A stretch of DNA of 64,000 bases from Escherichia coli (GCF_044324785.1 NZ_CP172127.1); one strand, 5' to 3'; shown: positions 13,048 through 61,512, numbered from the stretch's first letter. The notes: generated from the sequence alone by a model not told the origin. Translations and numbers: made by a program.

Positions 13048-13896
13048 TTATTGCCGAACCAGTCTTGTGGTCGATGGGACAAAATCGCTATTACTGCGCC
13101 ACGGGTTAATGTCCAGACCGCCACGACGGGTATAACGTGCGTAAACGCTCAATTTCTCTGGCTGGCAGAAGCGTAACAGGTCATTAAAGATGCGTTCCAC
13201 GCACTGTTCGTGGAACTCGTTGTGATGGCGGAAAGAGACCAGGTAACGCAGCAGTTTTTCTCTGTCAATTTGGCGTCCACGATACTGAATTTGGATCGAA
13301 CCCCAATCTGGTTGATGGGTGATCAGGCAGTTTGATTTCAGCAGGTGGCTGACAAGCGTCTCTTCCACTACTTTTTCACCACTGGTGGCATTCTCCAGAT
13401 AGTCAGTAGTGAATTCATAGTTATCGATAGTGATATCCTGGTCATCAATGCAAGTGCCATTGAAATGACCTATCGGCTGGCCTTCCAGTTCATCAAGACG
13501 ATATAACGCCACGCTAACATTACCCTGAGCGCAAGTGCTTAAGTCGCGCTCCAGCGTCTGGCGCACCTCATCCCAGTTATTAAAACGCGTCTGGTTAAAA
13601 CTGTTGAGATAGAGCTTAAAACTCTTCGACTCAATCAGATTTGCGCTGGTGTAATCAAGTTCAACATGACCGACGGCGACCTGCGGCAAACCTTTCGCAT
13701 TCAGCCAGGAAAGTTCATACAGCGTCCAGATATCCGTACCGTGAAAAGGCAGGTTATCCGCTTTCAGATCCAGCGGATCGCGATTCAGACTACGCGGAAC
13801 GCCTTGTAGCAGGCTGGCGTCATAGGTATCCCGGTAATCGGTTGATTTTCCAAGAGTCAGGCCCGCAAGTGCCTGATGGTTTGCATAAGAAGACAT
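13048..13896 (-). CDS. queF: NADPH-dependent 7-cyano-7-deazaguanine (preQ0) reductase
   Basis: 282-aa [43 protein letters not shown]...; QueF/YqcD. Confidence 0.92.
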
Positions 13897-13963
13897 GTTT
13901 CACCGTCATAAACCAGATAAACTAAACGACAAGTGTATCTGGTTTAAGTGAAGAGAGAAATTA

Positions 13964-14509
13964 GTGGACGATTTGACCGCACAAGCCCTGAAAGATTTTA
14001 CTGCACGCTACTGCGATGCGTGGCATGAAGAGCATAAAAGCTGGCCGTTGAGTGAGGAACTGTACGGCGTTCCTTCACCGTGCATTATTTCAACCACCGA
14101 AGATGCCGTATACTGGCAACCCCAGCCGTTTACCGGGGAACAAAATGTAAACGCGGTTGAACGCGCTTTTGATCTTGTGATACAACCCACAATTCATACC
14201 TTTTATACGACTCAGTTTGCCGGGGATATGCACGCGCAGTTTGGCGATATCAAACTGACATTGCTGCAAACCTGGAGTGAAGACGACTTCCGTCGGGTGC
14301 AGGAAAATCTGATTGGTCATCTGGTGACTCAGAAAAGGCTAAAATTGCCGCCCACGCTATTTATCGCGACGCTGGAAGAAGAGTTAGAGGTCATCTCGGT
14401 GTGTAATCTCTCCGGTGAAGTGTGTAAAGAGACGCTGGGAACACGTAAACGGGCGCATTTAGCCTCAAATCTTGCGGAATTCCTTAATCAACTTAAGCCT
14501 CTTCTGTAA
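13964..14509 (+). CDS. syd: SecY-interacting protein Syd
   Basis: 181-aa [38 protein letters not shown]... Confidence 0.92.
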
Positions 14510-14727
14510 TCCAAATACCCCATCTGGTTGTGAGAGATCTCTTACAGACTCTGTAGGAGATCGCCAGGAAATAAGCGAATACTTAAAAAGATAAGAATCG
14601 TTATTTTCATTTAAAATCAATATATTGCTTGTTAATTCTTAACTTTCATATGAAATTTTCCTTAAGGCATTGTCTGTAAGCGCCTTGTAAGACTTCGCGA
14701 AAAAGACGATTCTATCTTCGTCGACAG

Positions 14728-15086
14728 GGAGTCAGACAACGAAGTGAACATCAGGATGATGACACTTCTGAAGGACACACCAAGATGGTGTTTCAGGGAA
14801 AGGCTTCTGGATGAAGCGAAGAGGATGACGCAGGACGCGTTAAAGGACACCTCCAGGATGGAGAATGAGAACCAGTCAGGATGATTCGGTGGGTCAGGAA
14901 GGCCAGGGACACTTCAGGATGAAGTATCACATCGGGGTGGTGTGAGCAGGAAGCAATAGTTCAGGATGAACGATTGGCCGCAAGGCCAGAGGAAAAGTTG
15001 TCAAGGATGAGCAGGGAGCAACAAAAGTAGCTGGAATGCTGCGAAACGAACCGGGAGCACTGTGAATACAGTGCTCCCTTTTTTTA
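14728..15086 (+). ncRNA. csrB: CsrB small RNA (CsrA-sequestering sRNA)
   Basis: About 360-nt non-coding stretch between syd and yqcC densely packed with CAGGA(U)G / AGGA motifs (caggatga, aaggacac, caggatgg, tcaggatg, caaggatg ...), ending in the GC hairpin gggagcactgtgaatacagtgctccc + T8; sequence matches K-12 CsrB as recalled. Confidence 0.9.
15053..15086 (+). terminator. Rho-independent terminator of csrB
   Basis: Perfect 10-bp stem gggagcactg/cagtgctccc with a 6-nt loop followed by TTTTTTTT. Confidence 0.9.
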
Positions 15087-15130
15087 TTCCTGCTATCCTT
15101 CGCGGCAGTTTTTCTTATTGAGGTTGCTTT

Positions 15131-15460
15131 ATGACCACTCATGACCGCGTTCGTCTCCAGTTGCAGGCGCTTGAAGCGTTACTGCGTGAACATCAGCACT
15201 GGCGAAACGATGAACCCCAGCCGCATCAATTTAATAGTACCCAACCGTTCTTTATGGACACCATGGAACCACTGGAGTGGTTGCAGTGGGTGCTGATCCC
15301 GCGAATGCACGATTTGTTAGATAACAACCAGCCATTACCGGGCGCTTTTGCCGTTGCTCCCTATTATGAAATGGCGCTGGCGACGGACCACCCGCAACGC
15401 GCGCTTATTCTGGCTGAGCTGGAAAAACTGGATGCTCTTTTTGCGGATGATGCGAGCTAA
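15131..15460 (+). CDS. yqcC: Conserved protein YqcC (DUF446)
   Basis: 109-aa ORF MTTHDRVRLQLQALEALLREHQHWRNDEPQ...; stop overlaps the truC start (TAATG). Confidence 0.85.
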   Translation: MTTHDRVRLQLQALEALLREHQHWRNDEPQPHQFNSTQPFFMDTMEPLEWLQWVLIPRMHDLLDNNQPLPGAFAVAPYYEMALATDHPQRALILAELEKLDALFADDAS

Positions 15461-16242
15461 TGCTGGAAATACTCTATCAGGATGAATGGCTGGTTGCGGT
15501 AAATAAACCCTCCGGCTGGCTGGTTCACCGCAGCTGGCTGGATCGCGACGAGAAAGTAGTGGTCATGCAAACCGTGCGTGACCAGATAGGCCAGCATGTG
15601 TTTACTGCTCATCGTCTGGACCGACCAACTTCTGGTGTGTTGTTGATGGGATTATCCAGCGAGGCCGGACGGCTGCTGGCACAACAGTTTGAACAGCACC
15701 AAATCCAGAAACGTTACCATGCGATCGTGCGCGGCTGGTTGATGGAAGAAGCAGTTCTGGATTATCCACTGGTGGAAGAACTGGACAAAATCGCTGATAA
15801 ATTTGCCCGCGAAGATAAAGGCCCACAGCCAGCAGTGACGCATTATCGCGGTCTGGCGACCGTAGAAATGCCGGTAGCGACCGGACGTTACCCGACCACG
15901 CGCTACGGCCTGGTGGAACTGGAGCCGAAAACCGGACGCAAGCACCAGCTCCGTCGCCATCTTGCCCATTTGCGGCACCCGATTATTGGCGACAGCAAAC
16001 ATGGTGATTTACGCCAGAATCGCAGCGGTGCTGAACATTTTGGCCTTCAGCGGTTAATGCTACATGCCAGTCAGTTGTCATTGACGCATCCTTTTACTGG
16101 CGAGCCGTTGACTATTCACGCGGGCCTGGACGGCACCTGGATGCAGGCGTTATCACAATTTGGCTGGCGGGGTCTGCTTCCTGAAAATGAAAGGGTTGAG
16201 TTCAGTGCTCCATCGGGTCAGGATGGAGAGATAAGTTCCTAA
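15460..16242 (+). CDS. truC: tRNA pseudouridine(65) synthase
   Basis: 260-aa [28 protein letters not shown]...; RluA-family pseudouridine synthase motifs. Confidence 0.92.
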
Positions 16243-16259
16243 TCCAGGGAGAAAACGGT

Positions 16260-16709
16260 ATGGCGGAAATTGGTATTTTTGTCGGCACTATGTACGGAAA
16301 TTCGCTGTTAGTGGCGGAAGAAGCGGAAGCAATTCTGACCGCGCAGGGCCACAAAGCAACGGTATTTGAAGATCCTGAATTAAGCGACTGGCTGCCCTAT
16401 CAGGATAAGTATGTTCTGGTGGTTACGTCCACGACCGGGCAGGGCGACCTTCCTGATAGCATTGTGCCGCTCTTTCAGGGAATTAAAGATACCCTGGGCT
16501 TCCAGCCGAATCTGCGTTATGGCGTGATTGCGCTCGGCGACAGCAGTTATGTGAATTTCTGCAATGGCGGCAAACAGTTCGATGCCTTGTTGCAGGAACA
16601 GAGCGCTCAGCGGGTTGGCGAAATGCTGTTGATTGACGCCAGTGAGAACCCGGAACCGGAAACGGAATCAAATCCGTGGGTCGAACATTGGGGCACGCTG
16701 TTGTCCTGA
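16260..16709 (+). CDS. yqcA: Flavodoxin-like protein
   Basis: 149-aa [41 protein letters not shown]... with flavodoxin fold signature (T-S-T-T-G-x-G-D). Confidence 0.88.
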
Positions 16710-17143
16710 TATGTTCAGCGAGCGGTAAATGCCGTTTTAGCGGTGCTGAATCGAATCTTTTCAGGCAAATGCCAGTAAAAACTGCTTCATAGCGCGGATT
16801 TTTACTGGCGTTTGCCTGGAGTCAAGCGATCCATTTCATACTCTTCTTTATTTCTTCGTTTTAACCCTTCCTTTCTTGTTTTTGTTTTCATTTCCGTGAA
16901 GTGGATTCCACCGTCCAGGGCTAATGCCAAAATCGGGCCTCATTGAACGCATTAATGTTGTGTTGTTGCACGGTGAGCCGCTATGGCGCGCTTTTTATAC
17001 TGCTATTGCCAGATATAAACACGCGCCGTATTCGGCGAACGACCTATAAAAACGGCAAAAAACACCCTACGTCACCTCTGATTTCCTGGCGATGTCGCAG
17101 TCCAGAGTGAGCGTGGCTAACGCGAATTTTCAGGAGTGCAACA

Positions 17144-18496
17144 ATGAGTTCTTTAAGTCAGGCTGCGAGCAGTGTGGAAAAACGCACAAATGCTCGTTAC
17201 TGGATAGTGGTGATGTTGTTTATCGTCACATCCTTCAACTACGGCGACCGCGCTACGCTTTCTATTGCCGGTTCGGAAATGGCCAAAGATATCGGCCTTG
17301 ATCCCGTGGGAATGGGCTATGTGTTCTCTGCTTTCTCATGGGCTTATGTTATCGGACAGATCCCTGGTGGTTGGTTGCTGGATCGTTTTGGTTCAAAACG
17401 CGTCTACTTCTGGTCGATCTTTATCTGGTCGATGTTTACCTTGCTGCAAGGCTTCGTCGATATTTTTAGTGGATTCGGCATTATCGTTGCCCTGTTTACG
17501 CTGCGCTTCCTGGTCGGGCTTGCTGAAGCGCCATCTTTCCCCGGCAACAGTCGCATTGTTGCGGCCTGGTTTCCGGCGCAGGAAAGGGGAACGGCGGTGT
17601 CGATTTTTAACTCCGCCCAATACTTCGCAACGGTGATCTTCGCGCCGATTATGGGCTGGCTGACGCATGAAGTGGGCTGGTCACACGTCTTCTTCTTTAT
17701 GGGCGGTCTGGGCATTGTCATCAGCTTTTTCTGGCTGAAAGTCATCCACGAGCCAAATCAACATCCGGGTGTAAATCAGAAAGAGCTGGAGTACATCGCC
17801 GCGGGTGGCGCGCTGATCAATATGGATCAGCAAAACACCAAAGTTAAAGTGCCGTTCAGCGTGAAGTGGGGGCAGATCAAACAGCTGCTCGGGTCACGGA
17901 TGATGATCGGCGTTTATATCGGTCAGTACTGTATCAACGCCCTGACTTACTTTTTCATTACCTGGTTTCCGGTTTATCTGGTGCAGGCGCGTGGGATGTC
18001 GATCCTGAAAGCGGGCTTTGTGGCTTCCGTTCCGGCGGTTTGCGGTTTTATCGGCGGTGTGCTGGGTGGGATTATTTCCGACTGGCTGATGCGCCGCACG
18101 GGATCGCTGAACATTGCGCGTAAAACACCGATCGTAATGGGCATGTTGCTGTCGATGGTGATGGTGTTCTGCAACTACGTCAACGTTGAGTGGATGATCA
18201 TCGGCTTTATGGCGCTGGCCTTCTTCGGTAAGGGCATCGGGGCGCTGGGTTGGGCAGTAATGGCAGATACCGCGCCAAAAGAGATCAGCGGTCTTTCCGG
18301 TGGCCTGTTCAACATGTTCGGTAACATTTCTGGCATCGTCACGCCAATCGCAATTGGTTATATCGTTGGCACGACTGGCTCGTTTAATGGGGCGCTGATT
18401 TATGTTGGTGTTCATGCCTTAATCGCGGTACTGAGCTACCTGGTGCTGGTGGGCGATATCAAGCGTATCGAGTTGAAACCTGTTGCGGGGCAATAA
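17144..18496 (+). CDS. gudP: Glucarate/galactarate MFS transporter
   Basis: 450-aa polytopic [43 protein letters not shown]...; first gene of gudPXD. Confidence 0.92.
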
Positions 18497-18497
18497 G

Positions 18498-19838
18498 ATG
18501 GCGACACAATCCAGTCCTGTTATTACTGATATGAAAGTCATTCCGGTGGCCGGGCATGACAGCATGTTGCTTAATATTGGTGGTGCACATAACGCATATT
18601 TCACCCGCAATATTGTGGTACTCACCGATAACGCCGGGCATACCGGTATTGGTGAAGCGCCGGGCGGAGAGGTGATTTATCAGACGCTTGTCGATGCTAT
18701 TCCGATGGTGCTGGGCCAGGAAGTTGCGCGCCTGAATAAAGTGGTTCAGCAGGTGCATAAAGGTAATCAGGCAGCCGATTTTGATACCTTCGGCAAAGGT
18801 GCCTGGACCTTTGAATTGCGCGTTAACGCCGTGGCGGCGCTGGAAGCCGCCTTGCTTGACCTGCTAGGTAAGGCGCTGAATGTTCCGGTCTGCGAACTGT
18901 TAGGGCCAGGCAAGCAACGCGATGCTATTACCGTCCTCGGTTATCTGTTTTATATCGGTGATCGGACCAAAACCGATCTTCCTTATCTGGAAAATACGCC
19001 GGGCAACCATGAGTGGTATCAGTTGCGCCATCAGAAAGCGATGAACAGCGAAGCCGTTGTGCGTCTGGCGGAAGCCTCACAGGATCGCTACGGCTTTAAA
19101 GATTTCAAACTTAAGGGCGGCGTGTTACCTGGCGAGCAAGAAATCGACACTGTTCGTGCATTGAAGAAACGCTTCCCGGATGCGCGGATTACCGTTGATC
19201 CCAACGGTGCATGGCTGCTTGATGAAGCCATTTCTCTGTGCAAAGGGCTGAATGATGTTCTTACCTATGCCGAAGATCCATGCGGAGCAGAACAGGGGTT
19301 CTCCGGACGTGAAGTGATGGCGGAGTTTCGGCGGGCGACCGGCTTGCCCGTCGCGACTAATATGATCGCCACCAACTGGCGCGAAATGGGCCATGCGGTA
19401 ATGCTCAATGTGGTGGATATTCCACTTGCCGATCCGCATTTCTGGACGCTTTCCGGTGCAGTCCGCGTGGCGCAGCTTTGCGACGATTGGGGGCTGACCT
19501 GGGGCTGCCATTCCAATAACCACTTTGATATCTCTCTGGCGATGTTTACCCATGTGGGTGCGGCGGCACCGGGTAATCCTACCGCTATCGATACCCACTG
19601 GATTTGGCAGGAGGGCGATTGTCGCCTGACCAAAAATCCGCTGGAGATTAAAAACGGAAAAATTGCCGTTCCTGATGCGCCCGGTCTGGGCGTGGAACTG
19701 GACTGGGAGCAGGTACAAAAGGCGCATGAGGCCTATAAACGTCTGCCTGGCGGTGCGCGTAACGACGCGGGCCCGATGCAGTACCTGATCCCCGGCTGGA
19801 CCTTTGACCGTAAACGTCCCGTTTTCGGCCGTCATTGA
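18498..19838 (+). CDS. gudX: Glucarate dehydratase-related protein (enolase superfamily)
   Basis: ORF 18483-19838; start placed at the ATG giving [32 protein letters not shown]... (446 aa); paralogue of the following gene. Confidence 0.9.
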
Positions 19839-19858
19839 TTTTGAAAAAGGACATAAAG

Positions 19859-21199
19859 ATGAGTTCTCAATTTACGACGCCTGTTGTTACTGAAATGCAT
19901 GTCATCCCGGTGGCGGGCCATGACAGTATGCTGATGAATCTGAGTGGTGCACACGCACCGTTCTTCACGCGTAATATTGTGATTATCAAAGATAATTCTG
20001 GTCACACCGGCGTAGGGGAAATTCCCGGCGGCGAGAAAATCCGTAAAACGCTGGAAGATGCGATTCCGCTGGTGGTGGGGAAAACGCTGGGTGAATACAA
20101 AAACGTTCTGACGCTGGTGCGTAATACATTTGCCGATCGTGATGCCGGCGGGCGCGGTTTGCAGACATTTGATTTGCGGACCACTATTCATGTGGTTACC
20201 GGGATAGAAGCGGCAATGCTGGATCTGCTGGGGCAGCATCTGGGGGTTAACGTGGCATCGCTGCTGGGCGATGGTCAACAGCGTAGCGAAGTCGAAATGC
20301 TCGGTTATCTGTTCTTCGTCGGTAATCGCAAAGCCACACCGCTGCCGTATCAAAGCCAGCCGGATGATAAATGTGACTGGTATCGCCTGCGTCACGAAGA
20401 AGCGATGACGCCGGATGCGGTGGTGCGCCTGGCGGAAGCGGCATATGAAAAATATGGCTTCAACGATTTCAAACTGAAGGGCGGTGTACTGGCCGGGGAA
20501 GAAGAAGCCGAATCTATTGTGGCACTGGCGCAACGCTTCCCACAGGCGCGTATTACCCTCGATCCTAACGGTGCCTGGTCGCTGAACGAAGCGATTAAAA
20601 TCGGTAAATACCTGAAAGGTTCGCTGGCTTATGCAGAAGATCCGTGTGGTGCGGAGCAAGGTTTCTCCGGGCGTGAAGTGATGGCGGAGTTCCGTCGCGC
20701 GACTGGCCTGCCGACCGCAACCAATATGATCGCCACCGACTGGCGGCAGATGGGCCATACGCTCTCGTTACAATCCGTTGATATCCCGCTGGCGGATCCG
20801 CATTTCTGGACGATGCAAGGTTCGGTACGTGTGGCGCAAATGTGCCATGAATTTGGCCTGACCTGGGGTTCACACTCTAACAACCACTTCGATATTTCCC
20901 TGGCGATGTTTACCCATGTAGCCGCTGCTGCACCGGGTAAAATTACTGCTATTGATACGCACTGGATCTGGCAGGAAGGCAATCAGCGTCTGACCAAAGA
21001 ACCGTTTGAGATCAAAGGCGGGCTGGTACAGGTGCCGCAAAAACCAGGATTGGGCGTAGAAATCGATATGGATCAGGTGATGAAAGCCCACGAGCTGTAT
21101 CAGAAACACGGGCTTGGCGCGCGTGACGATGCAATGGGAATGCAGTACCTGATTCCTGGCTGGACGTTCGATAACAAGCGTCCGTGCATGGTGCGTTAA
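19859..21199 (+). CDS. gudD: D-glucarate dehydratase
   Basis: ORF 19835-21199; start at the ATG giving [36 protein letters not shown]... (446 aa). Confidence 0.92.
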
Positions 21200-21210
21200 G
21201 ACAGAAAACC

Positions 21211-21238
21211 AAAACCGGCTCTGTCAGGAGCCGGTTTG
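21211..21238 (+). terminator. Probable terminator of the gud operon
   Basis: Hairpin ccggctc-tgtcagg-agccgg followed by TTT, 12 nt after the gudD stop. Confidence 0.5.
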
Positions 21239-21320
21239 AGACTGATGCCAAACGCAAAATTGCCTGTTGCGCTACGTATCAGGCCAACATACTTTTTAAT
21301 TCATTGAATTTAATTGATTT

Positions 21321-21355
21321 TGTAGGCCGGATAAGGCGTTAACGCCGCATCCGGC
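21321..21355. repeat. REP element
   Basis: gtaggccggataaggcgttaacgccgcatccggcat palindromic unit between convergent gudD and barA. Confidence 0.7.
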
Positions 21356-21429
21356 ATAAACACAGGCACCTTGTCACCAATCTGAAACCAGCGTCATAAA
21401 AAGCCGATTGCTACTCGACAAGACGTCCA

Positions 21430-24186
21430 TTACCCGAGAATTTTGCTGGCTTCGCGCGCTACATTATCCATCTCGTCCAACAGTTCCAGCAGCTCCGGCT
21501 CCAAATCTTCTTCTTTAGTACCGCTACGTAGCTGTTGTTCGATCAGTTGGCAGAGATTCTTCATACGCGGCACACCGCTATAGCCGCAACTGCCATGCAG
21601 TTTATGAATCAAATCAACCAGGCCTTCCGGGTTTTCTCCAACCAGCTGTTCCTCAACTTTGTTGCGAACTTCAGGCAGGAAATCGAGTAACATTTGCAGC
21701 ATATCGCGCGCTAAATCGGTTTTTCCTGCTGCCTGGCGTAGTGCCAGTTGCCAGTCGAGGGTCGCATTCGGGTTCACCACAATTTCGTTGACTTCGGGCG
21801 TCACGACGCGAGACGAAATACCGCTGCCAGGCTTGTAGCGCAACAACAAATTATGCAATCGCTCTTCTTCAATCGGTTTCGCCAGATAATCGCTCATCCC
21901 TGCGCCAAGCAGCTTCTCTTTTTGCCCGGCCATTGCATGCGCCGTTACCGCGATAACCGGCGTTTGTTGCTGATGGGGGAGCTGGTGGATGAGCTCGCAG
22001 GCCCGAATGCCATCCATGTCAGGCATTTGAATATCCATTAAGATCAAATCGAACGGCATCTGTTTCGCCCGTTCAACCGCCTGATGCCCGCTATCGCAAA
22101 GTTCCACATGTTGCACCATATCTTCCAGCAATGCGCCGATAAGTTTCAGGTTAGCGGGGTTGTCATCAACCGCCATGACTGTCATTGCCAGCTTACTTTC
22201 ATCGGTTACAGGCAAAAGCGTGTTTTGTTTGTGATGACAAAATTCCGTCAGGGCAGGCAGCAGGCGCGTAGGTGTTAATGGTTTCAGCAGACACGCGCCG
22301 ATACCATCTTGCTTGAGTTTTTCAGCATTGACTTGTGCATGGCAAGGAAGTGCCAGCATCAGGAAATCGGTCATCGATACCGCTTTCGCTAATCGCTCAT
22401 GTTGCATTGTTAGCGGCTCGCGGAAGGTCACCGCGATGCCTAACAACATCATGTCGTAATGCGCGGGAGGCAGCGCGGAGAACGTTGGGCTATAAACCAC
22501 TTCCAGCGGCGTTTCACTTAAAATATCCAGCGTGCATTGCGCTGCTGCGGAGTTTGGTTCGACATAGGCCAGGCGCTTACCTGCGAGGCACTGGGTGGAT
22601 GGCCCTTCGATAATAATGTTCGGGTTCAGATCGAGATTAATGTGGAACCAGAAAGTTGAACCGCGATTCGGCTGGCTATGGAACGAAATATCGCCGCCCA
22701 TTTCATTAACCAGTTTTTGTGTAATCACCAGCCCCAGCCCGGTGCCACCATGACGGCGGGAAATACTGGCATCAGCCTGTCGGAAGGCCTGGAATAAGCG
22801 CGATTGATCGCGTTCAGGAATACCAATGCCGGTATCCCGAATCTGCACTTCAATCTGCACTTTGGTATTACTCAGCGCACGTTTTTCTACCAGAATATCA
22901 ATGTTGCCATTCTCGGTGAATTTAATTGCATTCCCCACCAGGTTAGTGATGATTTGCTGTAATCGCAGTGGGTCGCCAATTACGTTATCGGGCACGTCGC
23001 TCTTAATATTGAGCGTCAGTTCCAGCCCTTTATCGTGAGAAGAATGTGCCAGCAGGGTAACGACTTCATCCAGCGTGCTGCGTAGTGGGAATGGAATACT
23101 TTCCAGAATCAGCTTACCTGCTTCCAGTTTCGAGAAGTCGAGAACATCATTAATAATTGCCAGCAAATTATTTGCCGAACGTTCAATCGTATTCAGGTGA
23201 TCGCGCTGCGTTGGTGTTAATTCTGTTTTCAGCGTCAGGCGGGTAAAGCCAATAACACCATTCAGTGGTGTACGCAGCTCGTGTGACATATTTGCCAAAA
23301 ACTCGGATTTAATACGCGCCGCTTCCTGGGCGCGCTTTTTCGCCAGATCCAACTCAACGTTCTGAATTTCCATCTGCTCCAGCGTTTCACGCAGATCGGA
23401 CGTCGCCTGGTCGATATTGTGCTGCATCTCTTCGTGATAAGCAGCCAGCGACATTGCCATCGAGTTGATACCGTTTTTCAGCATATCCAGCTCGCCGAGC
23501 ATAAATCCTTCCACCCGGCTGTCGAGTTGCCCGCGACGGATGCGGTCGACGGTATTCACCATATTGCGAATCGGACCGGTTACATCGCGCATTAAGCGCC
23601 AGCCAAAAATAAGCGCAATACCGATACAAAACAGCATCATCACGCTGGAAATAAAGATCTCTTTATATTGCTGCAAGCGAACCGATTTAAGATCCAGCTC
23701 AAGCGCAATATATCCCAACATATTTTGACTATTTTTGGCATCGCTACTGGGCGATTCGTCGGGGGAGTAACTCTCAGAAATAATCGGCGTGCGGAGGATC
23801 ATAATATCGCCGTCACGAGTGACAGTGAGCTGGCGAGGAAACGGCACGTTGCTGCCGAGCTGCATTGATGAGGGATCAAGATGAAAATTGGAGGTGACAA
23901 AGAGTCGGTTATTTTCATCATAAACCGAAATCGCGCGAACAATATCGGAATGGCGACGATGCAGTACGCTTATTAACTGACCGATAGATTCGCGATTTTG
24001 CAGGCTCATGCCATATTCAGTAGAAACTGCAAGCGGCTCAATAATGCTGGCTCCGGCATCTTCCAGTTGACGCTGCAAGTCGTTATAGCGATGCACAACG
24101 AAAAAGATACTCAGCAATAAACCAATAAGGACGGTCGGTGCCAGGATCAGAATCATCATGCGTGCGCGCAGGCTGTAGTTGGTCAT
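21430..24186 (-). CDS. barA: Hybrid sensor histidine kinase BarA (BarA/UvrY two-component system)
   Basis: 918-aa [29 protein letters not shown]... with HAMP, HisKA (SHELRTPLN), receiver ([11 protein letters not shown]) and HPt regions. Confidence 0.95.
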
Positions 24187-24242
24187 GGAGTTCCGTTATG
24201 GGACAATTAAGGTCACACTGTTAAATTGAGAAAGTCTCGCCA

Positions 24243-25544
24243 ATGGCGCAATTCTACTCTGCAAAACGACGCACGACGACGCGTCAGATCATAACTGTTT
24301 CAGTCAACGACCTCGACTCTTTTGGTCAGGGCGTGGCACGACATAACGGCAAAGCGTTATTTATTCCTGGATTACTGCCACAGGAAAACGCGGAAGTTAC
24401 TGTTACTGAAGATAAAAAACAATACGCCCGCGCTAAAGTCGTACGCCGGTTAAGCGATAGCCCGGCACGCGAAACGCCACGCTGCCCTCATTTTGGCGTA
24501 TGCGGCGGCTGTCAGCAACAACACGCCAGCGAGGATTTACAGCAGCGAAGCAAAAGTGCGGCACTCGCCCGATTAATGAAACACGAAGTCTCTGAAGTGA
24601 TCGCCGATGTTCCCTGGGGCTATCGCCGTCGTGCGCGTTTAAGTTTGAACTACTTACCGAAAACACAGCAACTTCAGATGGGGTTTCGCAAAGCGGGCTC
24701 CAGTGACATTGTCGACGTTAAACAATGCCCCATTTTAGTGCCCCAACTTGAAGCATTGCTGCCCAAAGTCAGGGCATGCCTGGGCAGCTTACAAGCTATG
24801 CGCCATCTTGGTCATGTTGAACTGGTACAGGCAACCAGCGGCAAGCTGATGATTTTGCGCCATACCGCACCGCTAAGTTCGGCAGATCGCGAAAAACTGG
24901 AACGCTTTTCGCATTCTGAAGGCCTGGATCTGTATCTCGCCCCCGATAGTGAGATACTCGAAACCGTCTCTGGTGAGATGCCCTGGTATGACTCAAACGG
25001 GTTGCGCTTAACTTTTAGCCCGCGCGATTTTATTCAGGTCAATGCGGGTGTGAACCAAAAAATGGTAGCGCGAGCGTTGGAATGGCTGGATGTGCAACCT
25101 GAAGATCGCGTACTGGATTTGTTCTGCGGTATGGGCAACTTTACACTGCCATTGGCGACACAAGCTGCCAGTGTGGTGGGTGTAGAAGGTGTTCCGGCGC
25201 TGGTGGAAAAAGGCCAGCAGAATGCGCGTCTTAATGGCTTACACAATGTGACGTTTTATCACGAAAATCTTGAAGAAGATGTCACAAAGCAGCCGTGGGC
25301 GAAAAACGGCTTCGATAAAGTGTTGCTGGACCCGGCGCGAGCAGGTGCCGCAGGTGTTATGCAGCAAATTATAAAACTGGAACCTATTCGTATAGTTTAT
25401 GTATCCTGTAATCCTGCAACGCTGGCTCGGGATAGCGAAGCGTTATTAAAAGCAGGATATACCATTGCGCGACTGGCGATGCTGGATATGTTCCCACACA
25501 CGGGACATCTGGAATCGATGGTACTTTTCTCGCGCGTTAAATAG
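24243..25544 (+). CDS. rlmD: 23S rRNA (uracil1939-C5)-methyltransferase
   Basis: 433-aa [37 protein letters not shown]... with Fe-S cysteine cluster ([11 protein letters not shown]); RumA. Confidence 0.93.
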
Positions 25545-51821: not shown

Positions 51822-54521
51822 ATGCGTAAATATCCTTTAAGTTTACTGAAGGATAAAAATATTGTGACTTTTTTTGATTTCTGGGGAAAAACCCGACGCG
51901 GCGAGAAAGACGGGGGCGACGACTATCACCTTCTTTGCTGGCATTCGCTGGATGTAGCCGCGATGGGCTATTTAATGGTTAAAAGCAATTGCTTCGGGCT
52001 GGCTGACTATTTTCGTCAACTAGGTTTCGCTGATACGGAGCAGGCAGCACAATTTTTCGCCTGGCTATTGTGCTGGCACGATACTGGAAAATTTGCCCGC
52101 TCTTTTCAGCAACTTTACCTGCACCCGCAACTCAAGGTTCCGGAAAGCTCTAGAAAAAATTACGAAAAAATCTCTCATTCAACGCTGGGTTACTGGTTGT
52201 GGCACCATTATTTAAGTGAATGCGAAGAATTGCTTCCTGCATCTTCACTCTCTCCGCGCAAGCTCAAACGGGTAATAGATATGTGGATGCCCATAACTAC
52301 CGGGCATCATGGTCGGCCTCCTGACCGTATGGATGAACTGGACAACTTTCTGCCTGAAGACAAAGCTGCCGCACGAGATTTTCTCCTTGCAATCAAGGCA
52401 CTGTTTCCGCTCATAGAGATCCCCACATTCTGGGATGATGACGAGGGCGTTGAACTCATAAAACAACTTTCCTGGTATATCTCTGCAACCGTCGTACTCG
52501 CAGACTGGACGGGATCGTCAGCGCGATTTTTTCCACGCGTCGCGCAGGCAATGGATATTGAAGATTACTGGCAGAAGGCTTTAGTTCAGGCTCAAAACGC
52601 ATTAACCGTCTTTCCTCCAAAAGCACAAACCGCGCCTTTCACCGGAATTAATACGCTGTTTCCTTTTATTGAGCACTCGACACCGTTACAGCAAAAGGTG
52701 CTGGATCTGGATATCAGCCAGCCTGGGCCACAGTTATTTATTCTGGAGGATGTGACTGGCGCAGGTAAAACAGAAGCGGCGCTTATCCTGGCCCACAGGT
52801 TGATGGCTGCGGGGAAAGCACAGGGTTTGTTTTTTGGCCTGCCAACAATGGCAACGGCCAATGCCATGTACGATCGGCTGGTCAAAACCTGGCTTGCTTT
52901 CTATTCGCCACAATCCCGCCCCAGCCTGGTGCTGGCACACAGTGCCCGCACATTAATGGATCGCTTTAATGAATCACTCTGGTCCGGTGATTTAGTCGGG
53001 TCAGAAGAACCGGATGAACAAACGTTCAGTCAGGGATGTGCGGCCTGGTTTGCCGACAGTAACAAGAAGGCGTTGCTGGCTGAAATTGGCGTCGGCACTT
53101 TGGATCAGGCGATGATGGCGGTGATGCCGTTCAAACATAATAATCTGCGGCTTCTGGGGCTGAGTAATAAAATCCTGCTGGCTGATGAGATCCACGCCTG
53201 TGACGCTTACATGTCATGCATTCTTGAAGGGCTGATCGAGCGGCAGGCGCGTGGCGGAAACAGCGTCATTTTGCTTTCTGCCACGTTATCTCAACAGCAG
53301 CGCGACAAACTCGTTGCTGCCTTTGCGCGTGGTACAGAGGGCCAGCAAGAAGCTCCGTTCCTGGAAAAGGATGATTACCCCTGGCTGACGCACGTTACGA
53401 AATCCGATGTGCATTCACACCGGGTAGCGACGCGCAAAGACGTTGAGCGTAGCGTGAGCGTGGGTTGGCTTCATAGCGAACAAGAATGTATTGCGCGTAT
53501 CGAATCGGCAGTAAGTCAGGGGAAATGCATCGCCTGGATCCGGAATTCTGTCGATGACGCTATTAAGGTTTATCGTCAGTTGCTTGCCCGCGGCGTCATT
53601 CCTGCTTCCAGCCTTTCTCTGTTTCATAGCCGCTTTGCTTTTAGCGATCGCCAGCGAATTGAAACGGAAACGCTGGCACGCTTCGGTAAAAGTTGTAGTT
53701 TACAGAGATCATCGCAAGTCATTGTTTGTACACAAGTAATTGAACAAAGTGTGGATATTGACCTGGACGAAATGATATCCGACCTGGCCCCTGTTGATTT
53801 GCTGATCCAACGGGCGGGGCGATTACAGCGGCATATCCGCGATATTAATGGTCAGTTAAAGCGTGACGGAAAAGACGAGCGTTCCCCTCCTGAATTGCTG
53901 ATTCTGGCCCCCGTCTGGGACGACGCTCCAGGTGACGAATGGTTCGGCAGTGCCATGCGTAACAGTGCATATGTCTATCCCGATCATGGACGAATCTGGC
54001 TGACGCAGCGTGTACTGCGTGAGCAAGGCGCTATTCAAATGCCACACGCAGCCCGCCTTCTTATTGAATCAGTCTACGGTGAGGACGTGGTAATGCCGGA
54101 AGGATTTGCCCGCAGCGAGCAGGAACAAGTGGGCAAATATTACTGCGATCGCGCAATGGCTAAAAAGTTTGTGCTGAACTTCAGGCCCGGCTATGCCGCC
54201 AATATCAACGATTACCTCCCGGAAAAACTGTCGACACGTCTGTCTGAGGAGTCTGTTTCCCTGTGGCTGTCTACCTGTATTGCCGGTGTGGTAAAGCCTT
54301 ATGCCAACGGTGCTCACGCATGGGAAATGAGCGTTGTCAGAGTGCGTCGAAGCTGGTGGAAAAAACATCGCGATGAGTTTTCTTTACTGGAAGGGGATGC
54401 GTTCAGACAGTGGTGCGTTGAACAGCGGCAAGATCCGGAGATGGCAAATGTGATTTTAGTTACCGATGACGAAAGTTGCGGGTATTCGGCTACGGAGGGA
54501 TTGATAGGTAAGGTTGATTGA
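51822..54521 (+). CDS. cas3: Cas3 helicase-nuclease (type I-E)
   Basis: 899-aa ORF with HD nuclease N-terminal region (HSLDVA...), DEAD-like helicase Walker A (EDVTGAGKTEAA) and DExH box (LLADEIHACD); an alternative GTG start at 51864 is possible. Confidence 0.93.
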   Translation: MRKYPLSLLKDKNIVTFFDFWGKTRRGEKDGGDDYHLLCWHSLDVAAMGYLMVKSNCFGLADYFRQLGFADTEQAAQFFAWLLCWHDTGKFARSFQQLYLHPQLKVPESSRKNYEKISHSTLGYWLWHHYLSECEELLPASSLSPRKLKRVIDMWMPITTGHHGRPPDRMDELDNFLPEDKAAARDFLLAIKALFPLIEIPTFWDDDEGVELIKQLSWYISATVVLADWTGSSARFFPRVAQAMDIEDYWQKALVQAQNALTVFPPKAQTAPFTGINTLFPFIEHSTPLQQKVLDLDISQPGPQLFILEDVTGAGKTEAALILAHRLMAAGKAQGLFFGLPTMATANAMYDRLVKTWLAFYSPQSRPSLVLAHSARTLMDRFNESLWSGDLVGSEEPDEQTFSQGCAAWFADSNKKALLAEIGVGTLDQAMMAVMPFKHNNLRLLGLSNKILLADEIHACDAYMSCILEGLIERQARGGNSVILLSATLSQQQRDKLVAAFARGTEGQQEAPFLEKDDYPWLTHVTKSDVHSHRVATRKDVERSVSVGWLHSEQECIARIESAVSQGKCIAWIRNSVDDAIKVYRQLLARGVIPASSLSLFHSRFAFSDRQRIETETLARFGKSCSLQRSSQVIVCTQVIEQSVDIDLDEMISDLAPVDLLIQRAGRLQRHIRDINGQLKRDGKDERSPPELLILAPVWDDAPGDEWFGSAMRNSAYVYPDHGRIWLTQRVLREQGAIQMPHAARLLIESVYGEDVVMPEGFARSEQEQVGKYYCDRAMAKKFVLNFRPGYAANINDYLPEKLSTRLSEESVSLWLSTCIAGVVKPYANGAHAWEMSVVRVRRSWWKKHRDEFSLLEGDAFRQWCVEQRQDPEMANVILVTDDESCGYSATEGLIGKVD

Positions 54522-54547
54522 GATGCCCTGGCGTCGGATGACGCCAG

Positions 54548-54576
54548 GGCTTATCCCCGCTGACGCGGGGAACAGG
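54548..54576 (-). repeat. Solitary CRISPR-repeat-like sequence in inverted orientation downstream of cas3
   Basis: Minus-strand reading cctgttccccgcgtcagcggggataagcc matches the array repeat at 25 of 27 aligned positions; immediately preceded by a second perfect hairpin gccctggcgtc-ggat-gacgccagggc (54525-54550). Confidence 0.8.
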
Positions 54577-54950
54577 AGCATAAAATGATATACGTGTATC
54601 ACTAACTTGGTTAATCCCTTAGACAGGGAACTGAAGACGTTTATATCAAAAATAAGGGTTATTCGAAATAAAGAAAATCTCTAAGAGTTATTGATATACG
54701 TAACAATGTCCGGAAGCAGAGTTGAAAAACCTTTTGATAAAGAATACTTTGGTTTTTATTAAGTGATAGAGCCTGAGCGAAAAGGATTATAGAAAATTAT
54801 CTTTATATATTCGTGTGATTTATTGATTATTTAATAATAATCTAATTTTCAATATATTCATTTAATATGATGTAATCTCTCTTTTCGATTGATTCTTGAA
54901 TATGGTGATGGACAACCTACCATGGATGGTCTTATTTGCGAGGAAAGCGT
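54577..54950 (+). promoter_or_regulatory. cas3-cse1 intergenic region, expected Cascade operon promoter (Pcas; H-NS/LeuO-controlled in K-12)
   Basis: About 370 bp of strongly AT-rich non-coding DNA upstream of cse1 with a good RBS (gagga) before the ATG at 54951; promoter elements not mapped. Confidence 0.5.
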
Positions 54951-56509
54951 ATGGAATTTTTTTCAATTATAACAACCCCGTGGTTGCCCGTTCGTTATAA
55001 AGACGGAACGACAGGCAAACTGGCGCCAGTCGATCTGGCGGATGAAAATGTTGTCGATATCGCTGCGCCGCGGGCAGATCTCCAGGGGGCGGCCTGGCAG
55101 TTTTTGCTGGGGCTACTACAAACCAGCTTCGCGCCAAAAGATCATCGTCGTTGGGATGATATCTGGGAAGACGGACTGGAAGCTGAAAAGCTACGGGAAG
55201 CATTGCTATCTTTAGAACATGCTTTCCAGTTTGGCCCAGATTCCCCTTCATTTATGCAGGATTTCGAGGCGCTCACGGGAGATAAAGTTCAGATCGCTTC
55301 GCTACTGCCTGAGATTCCCGGCGCTCAAACAACGAAGTTTAATAAAGACCACTTTATTAAACGTGGCGTGACTGAACACGTATGCCCTCATTGTTCTGCG
55401 TTAGCTCTGTTCTCCCTACAGTTAAATGCACCGTCAGGCGGCAAAGGCTATCGCACCGGTTTACGCGGCGGTGGGCCGATGACCACTCTGATTGAATTAC
55501 AGGAATATCAGGGCAATCAACAAACGCCATTGTGGCGCAAACTGTGGCTCAACGTGATGCCGCAGGATGAAGCCGACTTACCGCTACCCAAAAAATTTGA
55601 CGATCTGGTTTTCCCCTGGCTTGGCCCGACGCGTACCAGCGAACTGACCGGTGCGGTGGTAACCGATGATCAGGTTAATAAACTCCAGGCGTACTGGGGA
55701 ATGCCACGGCGTATTCGTATTGATTTTAATACCACGACAGTCGGCAACTGCGATATTTGCGGTGAGCAGAGCGACGCGCTGCTAAGCCTGATGACGACCA
55801 AAAATTACGGCGCTAACTATGCCATGTGGCTGCATCCCTTAACGCCTTACCGTGTACCCCTTAAAGAGGGTGGCGAGTTTTACTCGGTCAAACCACAACC
55901 GGGCGGTTTAATCTGGCGCGACTGGTTAGGCCTTATCGAAACGGGTAAGTCAGAAAACAATACGGAACTTCCTGCACTGGTGGTGAAACTCTTTAATGCC
56001 AGCAGTCTGAAACAGGCAAAAGTGGGCCTGTGGGGATTTGGTTATGATTTTGACAACATGAAAGCGCGCTGTTGGTACGAACACCATTTCCCGCTACTGC
56101 TCAATAAAAAAGAAGGCCAGATACCGAAGCTGCGGCTGGCTGCGCAAACGGCTTCACGGATTCTGAGTCTGTTACGGAGTGCATTGAAAGAAGCATGGTT
56201 CTCCGATCCAAAAGGTGCAAGGGGTGATTTCAGTTTTGTGGATATCGACTTCTGGAACAAAACTCAGCATCGCTTCCTGAGGTTAGTGCGCCAAATTGAA
56301 GAAGGTCAGGATGCGGATGAATTACTCGGCAAATGGCAAAAGGAAATTTGGTTATTCGCGCGTCAGGATTTTGACGAGCGTGTATTCACTAATCCTTATG
56401 AGCCCGTTGATTTGAAACGCGTCATGACCGCGCGCAAGAAATATTTTACAACATCGGCGGAGAAGCAAAGTGCTAAAGCCGCCAGGGAGAAAAAGCAGGA
56501 GGCTGCTGA

Positions 56510-56513
<4 letters not shown>
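54951..56513 (+). CDS. casA: Cse1 / CasA (Cas8e), Cascade large subunit
   Basis: ORF 54936-56513; start chosen at MEFFSIITTPWLPVRYKDG... after RBS; first gene after cas3, about 520 aa; highly divergent from the K-12 CasA sequence as I recall it. Confidence 0.85.
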
Positions 56514-58116
<1,603 letters not shown>

Positions 58117-58126
58117 GGGGCGGCTA

Positions 58127-58873
58127 ATGAGCCAATATTTGATTTTTCAGCTTCATGGGCCAATGGCATCCTGGGGCGTCGATGCCCCCGGCGAAGTGCG
58201 TCATACCCATGAACTGCCTTCGCGCTCAGCATTGCTGGGGCTGCTGGCTGCCGGGGTAGGGATTCGGCGTGATGATACCGAACGATTAAACGCGTTTAAC
58301 CGCCACTATTCACTGGTGGTTTGCGCCAGCCGTAACCCGCGCTGGGCACGGGATTATCACACGGTCCAGATGCCAAAAGAGGTGCGTAAAGCGCGTTATT
58401 TCAGCCGTCGCGAAGAGTTGAGCGCCCCTGATCTTCTGAGCGCGATTATCTCCCGGCGCGACTACTACACCGATGCCTGGTGGATGGTGGCGGTGGCAAC
58501 AACCCCCGATGCGCCTTACAGCCTTGAACAGTTGCAGGACGGTTTACGTCATCCGGTTTTTCCGCTTTATCTGGGGCGAAAAAGTCATCCGCTGGCGTTA
58601 CCACTTGCGCCGTTACTGCTCGAAGGCAACGCGTCTGATGTCTTACGTAACGCATACCAACAGTATCAGGATAGTTTCCGCGAACTGAAAGTCTCACTCC
58701 CGAAACTTCAGGATGAATGCTGGTGGGAAGGGGAACACGACGGCCTGGTCGCGAGCAAAATATTACGTCGCCGGGATGTTCCTTTAAATCGTCAGCAGTG
58801 GCTGTTTGGGGAACGCACCATCAATCAGGGGCCGTGGCTCAGCAAGGAGGAACCATGTACCTCTCAAGAATAA
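58127..58873 (+). CDS. casD: Cas5e / CasD
   Basis: 248-aa ORF MSQYLIFQLHGPMASWGVDAPGEVRHT...SRSALLGLLAAGVGIRRDDT..., alignable to K-12 CasD (MRSYLILRLAGPMQAWGQPT...). Confidence 0.88.
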   Translation: MSQYLIFQLHGPMASWGVDAPGEVRHTHELPSRSALLGLLAAGVGIRRDDTERLNAFNRHYSLVVCASRNPRWARDYHTVQMPKEVRKARYFSRREELSAPDLLSAIISRRDYYTDAWWMVAVATTPDAPYSLEQLQDGLRHPVFPLYLGRKSHPLALPLAPLLLEGNASDVLRNAYQQYQDSFRELKVSLPKLQDECWWEGEHDGLVASKILRRRDVPLNRQQWLFGERTINQGPWLSKEEPCTSQE

Positions 58874-59501
58874 CCTTACATACCGGCCAGCTTTCGCCTG
58901 CGCAGTTGCTGCATTTGGTGGATCGCGGTGAATATGTAATGCATCAGTGGCTGTGGGATCTTTTTCCTGGCGGCAAAGAAAGGCAATTTCTTTATCGTCG
59001 GGAAGAACTCCAGGGGGCGTTTCGCTTTTTTGTCCTGTCGCAGGAACGCCCGGCGGAAAGTGATATTTTCACCATCGAATGCCGACCATTTGCGCCAGAG
59101 TTGCGTACCGGACAATCCCTTTGTTTCAACCTCCGGGCGAATCCAACAATTTGTAAAGCGGGCAAACGCCACGACTTGCTGATGGAGGCGAAACGGCAGG
59201 TGAGGGGGCAGGTGGAAGGAAGTGATGTCTGGTTGCATCAACAACAGGCTGCGCTGGACTGGCTGGCAGCGCAGGGGGAGAGAAGCGGTTTTACACTGCT
59301 GGATACTTCGGTTGATGCCTACCGACAACAGCAACTGCGGCGGGAAAACTCCCGGCAACTGATCCAGTTCAGTAGCGTGGATTATACGGGGATGCTTACG
59401 GTCACCGATCCTGGGTTATTTCTGCAACGTCTCAGTCAGGGGTATGGCAAAAGCCGGGCGTTCGGTTGTGGTCTGATGCTGATCAAACCCGGAGCAGAGG
59501 C

Positions 59502-59505
<4 letters not shown>
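58855..59505 (+). CDS. casE: Cas6e / CasE crRNA endoribonuclease
   Basis: Start at ATG 58855 after RBS aaggagg; MYLSRITLHTGQLSPAQLLHLVD... (K-12 CasE begins MYLSKVII...); overlaps the cas5 3' end by 19 nt; 216 aa. Confidence 0.88.
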
Positions 59506-60715
<1,210 letters not shown>

Positions 60716-60811
60716 GTTATCCGTTCTTTAAAAATAAGGAAATGTTTTAATTTAGTTGGTAGATTGTTGATGCGGAATAAATTTGTTTAAAAACAGTTAT
60801 GTATGCTTAGT
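60716..60811 (+). promoter_or_regulatory. CRISPR leader (array at 60812-61512)
   Basis: AT-rich 96 bp between the cas2 stop and the first repeat (…ggaaatgttttaatttagttggtagattgttgatgcggaataaatttgtttaaaaacagttatgtatgcttagt). Confidence 0.75.
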
Positions 60812-61512
60812 GTGTTCCCCGCGCCAGCGGGGATAAACCGTTTCACCGTCGTTCCGTCCGCGCGCTTAGCCTGTGTTCCCCGCGCCAGCGGGGATAAACC
60901 GATTGCGCGGACCGGGCCAGCGCGTCGATTTCTGTGTTCCCCGCGCCAGCGGGGATAAACCGGTGACGACGATCCCAACGCTGCAAAAGGTTAAGTGTTC
61001 CCCGCGCCAGCGGGGATAAACCGCCGTGCTCAATTCAACACCCGACACTGCGCGAGTGTTCCCCGCGCCAGCGGGGATAAACCGTTGTAATTTTGTTCAG
61101 TCTGGCCCATAGCGCGCGTGTTCCCCGCGCCAGCGGGGATAAACCGTTTTGTGAGTATCTTATTTGTCTGGCTCGGTGGTGTTCCCCGCGCCAGCGGGGA
61201 TAAACCGATCTGTTTGCAGATCAACAGGCCCGTAAGGACGTGTTCCCCGCGCCAGCGGGGATAAACCGATAACGCCCGCGCGATCTGGATTATCAGTTAC
61301 GTGTTCCCCGCGCCAGCGGGGATAAACCGCCCGACGGCAGTCGGAGATTAACTATATATGTGTGTTCCCCGCGCCAGCGGGGATAAACCGGGTAAAAACA
61401 CGGTCTGAACCGACATTCATGTGTGTTCCCCGCGTCAGCGGGGATAAACCGGACGCACTGGATGCGATGATGGATATCACTTAGAATTCCCCGCCCCTGC
61501 GGTAGAACTCGC
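60812..61512 (+). CRISPR. Type I-E CRISPR array, 12 repeats (11 canonical 29-bp GTGTTCCCCGCGCCAGCGGGGATAAACCG plus 1 degenerate terminal), 11 spacers of 32-33 bp
   Basis: Repeats start at 60812, 60873, 60934, 60995, 61056, 61118, 61179, 61240, 61301, 61362, 61423 (gcgTcagc variant) and degenerate 61484 (gaattccccgcccctgcggtagaactcgc). Confidence 0.97.

Follow-up and report, generated by a model that had tools for sequence, protein, structure and literature searches.

A canonical csrB locus and a convergent barA gene in the ancestral Escherichia coli gene order

The Gac, Var, and Bar systems share a common logic, in which a tripartite kinase acts through a FixJ/NarL-type regulator and an upstream palindrome, and the output, a sponge RNA rich in GGA motifs, titrates a CsrA/RsmA protein. 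This logic, which is established knowledge, unites BarA–UvrY–CsrB with GacS/GacA–RsmY/RsmZ of Pseudomonas and VarS/VarA–CsrB1-3 of Vibrio; the RsmY/RsmZ and CsrB1-3 RNAs belong to other Rfam families in CsrB's clan. The Pseudomonas and Vibrio sponge RNAs are not known to be linked to the kinase gene. BarA–UvrY orthologues activate such RNAs in many Gammaproteobacteria (PMC7652899). At the Moritella and Alcanivorax loci, our own searches found no csrB-like RNA closer than 10 kb to the BarA homologue, and the same was true of the other gammaproteobacterial loci with a BarA homologue of less than 50% identity. The described system that we used for comparison throughout is that of E. coli K-12 MG1655. 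K-12 csrB (b4408) has the same 369-nt length and the same syd/yqcC flanks as the gene described here, from which it differs at positions 52, 64, 155, and 340 of the RNA and at three AT-rich spacer positions upstream. K-12 BarA (b2786) shares its architecture and its site between gudD and rlmD with the BarA of this strain, and the differences are synonymous only.

The DNA that we analyzed is a 64,000-nucleotide stretch of an E. coli genome (the window). Almost certainly it holds a canonical E. coli csrB locus together with barA in their ancestral neighborhood, and the closeness of the two genes reflects inherited gene order, not functional coupling in cis. The elements, their positions, and their conservation given below come from analysis of the sequence; binding, activation, and sequestration we infer or take from the literature. 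The features are as follows.

13964–14509, + strand: syd (SecY-interacting protein), the upstream neighbor of csrB; NCBIfam NF003439, 284.9 bits against a cut-off of 153
14529–14546, no strand assigned: UvrY-P site, 18-nt inverted repeat TGTGAGAGATCTCTTACA; exact match, centered at -183/-182 from 14720
14552–14560, + strand: additional UvrY half-site TGTAGGAGA, 5 bp 3′ of the inverted repeat; identified by inspection of the sequence
14615–14627, + strand: IHF-like site AATCAATATATTG (WATCAANNNNTTR), -105 to -93; consensus match
14685–14713, + strand: probable csrB promoter, -35 TTGTAA (14685–14690), 17-nt spacer, -10 GATTCT (14708–14713); placed by geometry from 14720
14720–15088, + strand: csrB, 369-nt CsrA-sequestering small RNA; Rfam RF00018 and alignment to K-12 b4408
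14783, + strand: G to A at csrB position 64, loop CAGGAUG to CAAGAUG, GGA site 4 lost; alignment to K-12 and PCN033
14874, + strand: G to A at csrB position 155, in the hairpin stem beneath GGA site 12; alignment
15053–15085, + strand: csrB intrinsic terminator, 11-bp stem, 4-nt loop, T7 tract; terminator scan and RF00018 positions 321–346
15131–15460, + strand: yqcC; Pfam DUF446
15460–16242, + strand: truC; NCBIfam TruC model
16260–16709, + strand: yqcA; NCBIfam flavodoxin model
17144–21199, + strand: gudP, gudX, gudD (glucarate transport and dehydratases), which make up the variable interval separating yqcA from barA; NCBIfam matches
21430–24186, - strand: barA, tripartite hybrid sensor histidine kinase, 918 aa; NCBIfam NF008318

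An initial annotation of this DNA had recognized CsrB, and both the Rfam model and the K-12 gene bear this out. The RF00018 covariance model matched 14729–15088 on the + strand with 375 bits (gathering score 71, E = 5.5e-109) over all of its positions (1–356 of 356). Alignment to the 369-nt b4408, to which the gene is identical at 365/369 positions with four substitutions, set the ends at 14720 and 15088, the start site being carried over from the K-12 annotation. The extent first proposed, 14728–15086, thus lies at the right locus, with its 5′ end 8 nt inside the gene and its 3′ end 2 nt short. The first estimate of about 18 GGA motifs was too low; we counted 21, compared with 22 in K-12 and with a + strand background in the window of 5.3 ± 2.6 per 369 nt, where the highest count outside csrB was 13. 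Five of the motifs are full CAGGATG repeats, and partition-function folding gave P(unpaired) ≥ 0.7 for 17 of the 21; the fold z-score of the RNA was -4.57. Of 5426 complete E. coli genomes, 5425 gave a match to the csrB region (14400–15200); the best match reached 98.7% identity across 24 kb and 99.6% across that region. When 13500–25000 was searched with Rfam at permissive settings, the only other RNA returned was a sub-threshold REP-like naRNA4 match at 21325–21361. CsrA sequestration has been demonstrated for the K-12 RNA (PMC5027483), and 99% identity to that molecule suggests that the CsrB of this strain would also bind and sequester multiple CsrA dimers.

The known cis-elements upstream of csrB, with a putative IHF site among them, all appear to be intact, so that csrB is expected to be regulated here as in K-12. 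First, the initial annotation had suggested a scan for the UvrY palindrome, and that scan found TGTGAGAGATCTCTTACA exactly at its published position: the repeat adjoins the stop codon of syd (itself in the position of K-12 b2793), ~183 bp upstream of the csrB start site, and is equal in sequence and position to the UvrY site that DNase I footprinting and ChIP-exo have defined (Zere et al., 2015; PMC4682653). This is its single locus in the window, where 0.01 would be expected by chance. The repeat is exact in the csrB upstream regions of 25 of 34 other species, and its start lies at -189 to -195 in the 32 loci where csrB matches over its full length and the upstream sequence is complete. Second, the TGTAGGAGA half-site has been described for csrB of E. 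coli and Salmonella (PMC4682653) and is partially conserved in an alignment of 33 sequences. Third, the IHF-like site falls in the interval between two UvrY cross-linking regions in which a putative IHF site has been placed (PMC4682653), and the CA and TT positions of its core are conserved across species; so permissive a consensus matches the window 9 times, versus 2.7 expected, and the match is weak evidence by itself. Finally, the promoter hexamers are conserved in the 33 aligned sequences, with TTG, the A, and CT invariant, although the -10 hexamer agrees with consensus at only 3/6 positions. A σ70 consensus scan of 14400–15200 reported no promoter, because TTGTAA-17-GATTCT falls below its threshold, and we dismissed the blank scan as an argument against a csrB gene. 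A weak promoter is as expected for one that depends on an activator.

Comparison with the K-12 csrB promoter, also proposed at the outset, found the UvrY inverted repeat at -183/-182, the half-site, the hexamers, and the IHF consensus positions to be identical. The spacer has three substitutions (14621, 14624, and 14628), all at positions that are degenerate in the IHF consensus or flank it. Because csrB begins at 14720, this spacer is 14510–14719; the upstream region originally delimited, 14510–14727, starts correctly and runs past that end.

The barA gene lies at 21430–24186, as first annotated. Its 918-aa product scored 1623.9 bits against NF008318 (cut-off 890), with residues 1–917 on profile positions 1–917 of 920, and contains sCache_4, HAMP, HisKA, HATPase_c, Response_reg, and Hpt domains (Pfam). 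The protein is identical to K-12 BarA at 918/918 residues, and alignment of the two places phosphorelay residues H302, D718, and H861; the genes differ at 24 nucleotides (0.87%), all synonymous. This BarA protein is also the commonest E. coli allele. Given 100% identity to the K-12 protein, it would be expected to phosphorylate UvrY in response to carboxylates. That BarA acts through UvrY, as the initial annotation stated, is the established pathway; UvrY itself is not encoded in the window, where a tblastn search for uvrY matched only BarA's own receiver domain.

The steps of the BarA–UvrY–CsrB–CsrA pathway are established in the Csr literature, and we mapped them onto this sequence. BarA would sense short-chain carboxylates and phosphorylate UvrY, whose gene lies elsewhere in the genome. 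UvrY-P would then bind the inverted repeat ~183 bp upstream of the start site, and IHF probably bends the AT-rich DNA around 14615–14627, which would bring UvrY-P to the weak σ70 promoter. Transcription of csrB would start at G14720 and stop at the 15053–15085 terminator. The resulting 369-nt RNA, with ~17 of its 21 GGA motifs predicted to be accessible, would sequester CsrA dimers away from mRNAs; CsrD and RNase E would degrade it via the unstructured segment just 5′ of the terminator.

The RNA that would perform this role carries four differences from K-12. At position 52 (C to A), PCN033 shares the A, which 9 of 35 other aligned sequences carry as well, and 18 carry C; at position 340 (G to A), A is present in 33 of the 35 and restores a Watson–Crick pair in the terminator. 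The remaining two substitutions, one rare and one apparently unique, mean that the CsrB of this strain is not strictly identical to the molecule that has been studied. G14783A and G14874A might make it a functionally altered, slightly weakened allele with a reduced capacity to hold CsrA, which we consider unlikely. G14783A destroys a GGA that is predicted to be unpaired when the change is reverted (P = 0.98), alters a G shared by 34 of the 35 other csrB sequences in the alignment, and is rare: of 5421 complete E. coli genomes, 10 contain its exact 61-mer. G14874A occurs in 0 of 5425 complete genomes and in no metagenome stretch, compared with 59 stretches for the wild-type 26-mer that served as a positive control. 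Moreover, mutating GGA to CCA in a CsrA binding site eliminates both binding by CsrA and regulation (earlier work cited in PMC5027483). Against a weakened allele, 21 of 22 GGA motifs are retained, 17 of them predicted to be accessible, and the sites are redundant. In predicted folds, G14874A changes the local hairpin from -6.2 to -5.0 kcal/mol, a cost of only 1.2 kcal/mol, and GGA site 12 remains unpaired (0.98 versus 1.00). K-12 also encodes csrC, elsewhere in its genome, and thus csrC probably backs up CsrB in this strain too; loss of one csr RNA results in a compensatory rise of the other (PMC7652899). The 3′ turnover segment (GGA sites 16–22 in the K-12 comparison), which includes GGA sites 20–21 and the RNase E site near positions 327–331 (Vakulskas et al., 2016; PMC5027483), is the same as in K-12. 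Finally, errors of sequencing or assembly in the source genome may account for either change, as may neutral mutations private to this strain. We regard as distinctly improbable the stronger proposal that the strain represents an E. coli lineage absent among the 5426 complete genomes, with a csrB allele that is real, selected, and measurably shifts CsrA titration; if it were true, the allele would represent a mutation that naturally tunes a sponge RNA.

The canonical locus also has the expected surroundings. The 3′ ends of csrB (15088) and barA (21430) are separated by 6341 bp, within the 7 kb first noted, and the genes are convergent, so that barA is upstream of csrB in the signaling pathway only and not on the DNA. 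The initial description of a known arrangement was apt: the order syd-csrB-yqcC-truC-yqcA-gudP-gudX-gudD-barA-rlmD-relA is that of K-12 MG1655 (2,913,699–2,925,280) reversed, and the same csrB–barA layout is found in PCN033. Across 34 species, csrB is convergent to barA with a gap of 1.67–9.46 kb, in a conserved block relA-rlmD-barA-(gud)-yqcA-truC-yqcC-csrB-syd-queF, in which the yqcC-truC-yqcA segment (15131–16709 here) always accompanies csrB. The gud genes are missing from E. albertii, Pluralibacter, and RIT691, and there the csrB–barA gap narrows to 1.7–2.8 kb.

Could selection for keeping a sensor beside its main regulatory output, by co-inheritance or co-localization, explain this closeness better than passive gene order? 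Among loci with a BarA at least 70% identical and a full 10-kb flank, 33 of 34 have csrB less than 10 kb from barA and always convergent, and the arrangement reaches Pantoea stewartii. However, relA, rlmD, yqcA, truC, yqcC, syd, and queF are all conserved in order too; as every neighbor is kept, the conservation is not specific to the csrB–barA pair. The distance separating csrB from barA ranges from 1.7 kb to over 10 kb according to whether the gud operon intervenes, and the signal runs through UvrY, whose gene is outside the window and ~0.9 Mb away in K-12. No csrB was found within 10 kb of barA in Yersinia, Rahnella, Rouxiella, or Edwardsiella, and the BarA/UvrY–CsrB circuit still operates in Yersinia. 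A candidate csrB-like RNA across barA in Edwardsiella (locus L042), where a segment dense in GGA has 20 motifs, was rejected because it gave no Rfam CsrB match. Moreover, csrC, the other main UvrY target (PMC4682653), has no Rfam match anywhere in the window. With the whole neighboring block conserved and the spacing variable, we judge a functional linkage very improbable and favor inherited gene order.

The notion that the GGA-rich stretch is chance composition or a coding piece, with no RNA gene, deserves practically no credence: the purine-rich sequence does lift the expectation to 12 GGA motifs per 369 nt (12.0 ± 2.7 in mononucleotide shuffles of csrB, versus 21 observed), but the full-length covariance-model match and csrB orthologues at the equivalent position in 34 species rule it out, a conserved promoter and a terminator flank it, and 14510–15130 contains no ORF of at least 80 aa.

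The csrB–barA locus of this strain is ordinary and already described, a textbook instance of the Csr/BarA–UvrY arrangement, and with a known layout and known cis-elements it matters little in itself. The UvrY site, its distance to the start site, and the promoter hexamers are nearly invariant over ~34 enterobacterial species, and the csrB–barA linkage belongs to a larger conserved block in which the spacing is determined by whether the gud operon is there. Natural csrB alleles without one conserved GGA, which make up ~0.2% of E. coli, are possible natural tests of site redundancy.

The csrB–barA observation of the initial annotation is correct, descriptive, and previously known. By the tests that sequence allows, the window contains a CsrB-family RNA, a predicted UvrY-activated promoter, and a BarA equivalog, with a putative IHF site that matches a loose consensus. 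Searching the entire window with Rfam gave a single CsrB match (RF00018; 14729–15088, + strand; 375 bits, gathering score 71; E = 5.5e-109), which covered the full model. Alignment to the annotated K-12 MG1655 record extended the gene to 14720–15088, and the limits first assigned, 14728–15086, were therefore too short, lacking the first 8 and the last 2 nt of a gene that was itself correctly recognized.

Features of the csrB–barA region (positions in the window unless noted)
14510–14719: syd–csrB spacer, 210 bp
14529–14546: inverted repeat TGTGAGAGATCTCTTACA, UvrY site
14552–14560: accessory half-site TGTAGGAGA
14615–14627: IHF-like site, match to consensus WATCAANNNNTTR
14685–14690 and 14708–14713: TTGTAA and GATTCT, likely csrB promoter
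14720–15088, + strand: csrB
15053–15078: csrB terminator (terminator scan), followed by T7
21430–24186, − strand: barA
Gene order: queF (−), syd, csrB, yqcC, truC, yqcA, gudP, gudX, gudD, barA (−), rlmD, relA
K-12 MG1655 csrB: b4408, 369 nt, 2,924,156–2,924,524

CsrB contained 21 GGA triplets, not the approximately 18 first counted; that lower figure is near the predicted number of accessible motifs, 17 with P(unpaired) ≥ 0.7. Mononucleotide-shuffled csrB sequences carried 12.0 ± 2.7 GGA triplets, and the background across the window was 5.3 ± 2.6 per 369 nt, with a maximum of 13 in any other stretch of that length. K-12 csrB has 22, the number given in the literature (Vakulskas et al., 2016; PMC5027483). 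Of 5426 complete E. coli genomes, 5425 had a csrB-region match. At the barA locus, csrB was single-copy in every other species examined except an uncultured Enterobacteriaceae MAG (L034), where two tandem full-length copies lie downstream of barA (15983–16343 and 16670–17029, − strand; 251 and 256 bits by Rfam); Pseudocitrobacter csrB (L017) may carry a partial 5′ duplication.

The assignment of barA was confirmed by a match to NCBIfam NF008318 (1623.9 bits; cut-off 890) and by identity to K-12 BarA at 918 of 918 residues, including H302, D718, and H861. The protein has sCache_4, HAMP, HisKA, HATPase_c, receiver, and HPt domains, and all 24 nucleotide differences from K-12 barA are synonymous. 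The csrB and barA genes are convergent and 6341 bp apart, in agreement with the earlier "within 7 kb" and with the label of a known arrangement that was given to the pair at the outset. The order from queF to relA is that of K-12 in reverse and recurs in strain PCN033. No uvrY gene lies in the window, where tblastn with K-12 UvrY matched only the receiver domain of BarA. The convergent gudD–barA spacer holds a subthreshold Rfam match to the REP-derived family naRNA4 (21325–21361; 38.4 bits, gathering score 59.5), which is probably a REP element.

The upstream region named in the initial annotation (14510–14727) began correctly but ran past the end of the spacer at 14719. First, the proposed scan for a UvrY palindrome found one exact copy of the 18-nt repeat TGTGAGAGATCTCTTACA in the window (chance expectation 0.01), centered at −183/−182 relative to G14720, the start site carried over from K-12; the same position was given for the K-12 site by Zere et al. 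(2015; PMC4682653), who mapped it with ChIP-exo and with DNase I footprints of UvrY-P. The accessory half-site, 5 bp downstream of the repeat, was already described in that study. Second, the IHF-like match (−105 to −93), to a loose consensus, falls between the two UvrY cross-linking regions, the interval in which Zere et al. (2015) placed a putative IHF site. Third, the proposed comparison with the K-12 promoter revealed three spacer differences (14621, 14624, and 14628), all at N positions of WATCAANNNNTTR or just beyond and none at its fixed positions. The likely promoter hexamers, separated by 17 nt, were missed by a promoter consensus scan, being below the strength that it needs. Finally, alignment of the csrB upstream sequence with that of 32 other species showed conserved islands at the inverted repeat, the half-site, the IHF CA...TT core, and both hexamers. 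The repeat was exact in 25 of 34 species; its start lay at −189 to −195 in the 32 loci where csrB matched over its full length and the sequence upstream was complete.

Combined with activities from the literature (PMC4682653, PMC5027483, PMC7652899), these sequence elements and their conservation suggest how the circuit would work. Short-chain carboxylates (formate, acetate) would stimulate BarA, leading to phosphorylation of UvrY; UvrY-P would bind the far-upstream repeat, with IHF required for optimal UvrY binding and csrB expression; and the GGA motifs of the transcript would hold CsrA dimers, keeping them off mRNAs. RNase E would cut the unstructured segment directly 5′ of the terminator, a cut against which CsrA on GGA sites 20 and 21 would shield CsrB unless overridden by CsrD. 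The 3′ turnover segment is unchanged relative to K-12.

The csrB allele differs from that of K-12 at positions 52, 64, 155, and 340. The A at position 52 (C in K-12) also occurs in PCN033 and 9 of 35 other aligned sequences, 18 of which have C, and the A at position 340 (G in K-12) occurs in 33 of the 35. G14783A (position 64) changes a CAGGAUG loop to CAAGAUG and removes GGA site 4; the exact 61-mer with this change was found in 10 of 5421 complete E. coli genomes, and G is the base in 34 of the 35 other sequences in the csrB alignment. G14874A (position 155) was found in none of 5425 complete E. coli genomes and in no metagenome stretch, versus 59 with the wild-type 26-mer; it is predicted to weaken one hairpin by 1.2 kcal/mol and to leave its GGA unpaired. 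Because 21 of 22 GGA motifs are kept, any functional effect is probably small. The unusual changes may be sequencing errors, and an allele with a real regulatory effect is unlikely.

The window as a whole is E. coli-like. Over positions 12000–36000 (24 kb), the top identity among 5426 complete E. coli genomes was 98.7%, and most genomes among the matches listed reached at most 97.6%, though BarA is identical to that of K-12. The strain seems to come from a lineage for which complete E. coli genomes are sparse, or else from a close relative under another name. The mazE–mazF toxin–antitoxin pair is missing between relA (end 27826) and mazG (start 27922), which are just 95 nt apart; the pair occupies this position in four of five fetched contigs with the same BarA and in K-12, and one metagenome contig (L003) shares the mazEF-less layout. 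A sok antitoxin RNA (RF01794; 51333–51490, + strand; 111.7 bits, gathering score 59) lies between cysH and cas3, the hokX/sokX position of the K-12 map. The type I-E cas operon (51822–60425, + strand; cas3, casA, casB, casC, casD, casE, cas1) is a variant unlike that of K-12: Cas3 scored 420 bits, under the NF007248 cut-off of 569, and CasA scored 610 bits with TIGR02547 versus only 104 with NF007247. casC appears to be interrupted by an in-frame stop (57307–57309), its pieces being ORFs 57061–57309 and 57511–58116 in one frame, the second matching profile positions 151–325 only. Two short CRISPR arrays (60811–60962 and 61050–61268; period 61; 2.5 and 3.6 copies; repeat including GTGTTCCCCGCGCCAGCGGGGATAAACCG) lie ~90 bp apart between cas1 and the aminopeptidase gene iap (61533–62570).

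From genomes representing individual species, loci that encode BarA were taken with 10 kb of flanking DNA and searched for csrB by nhmmer and GGA-density counts, and six of them also by Rfam. In 34 loci, csrB lay past the barA 3′ end on the opposite strand, at gaps of 1.67–9.46 kb. Among loci with a full flank and BarA at least 70% identical, 33 of 34 had csrB nearby; in the sole exception, Citrobacter gillenii, csrB is presumably just past the locus edge, as yqcC ends ~50 bp from it. Short gaps marked loci without the gud operon (E. albertii, Pluralibacter, RIT691). In Erwiniaceae, gudD–gudP–yqcA or more was kept downstream of barA in six of seven loci, and additional DNA displaced csrB to ~10 kb (9.4 kb in Pantoea stewartii). 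In the fetched loci of Yersinia, Rahnella, Rouxiella, and Edwardsiella, the relA–queF block was not beside barA. Gene order across the fetched loci thus shows that the unit of conservation is the entire relA–queF block, not the csrB–barA pair as such. Because this whole block is conserved and UvrY, the pathway link between barA and csrB, is encoded at a distant locus, we conclude that the closeness of csrB and barA reflects inherited gene order.
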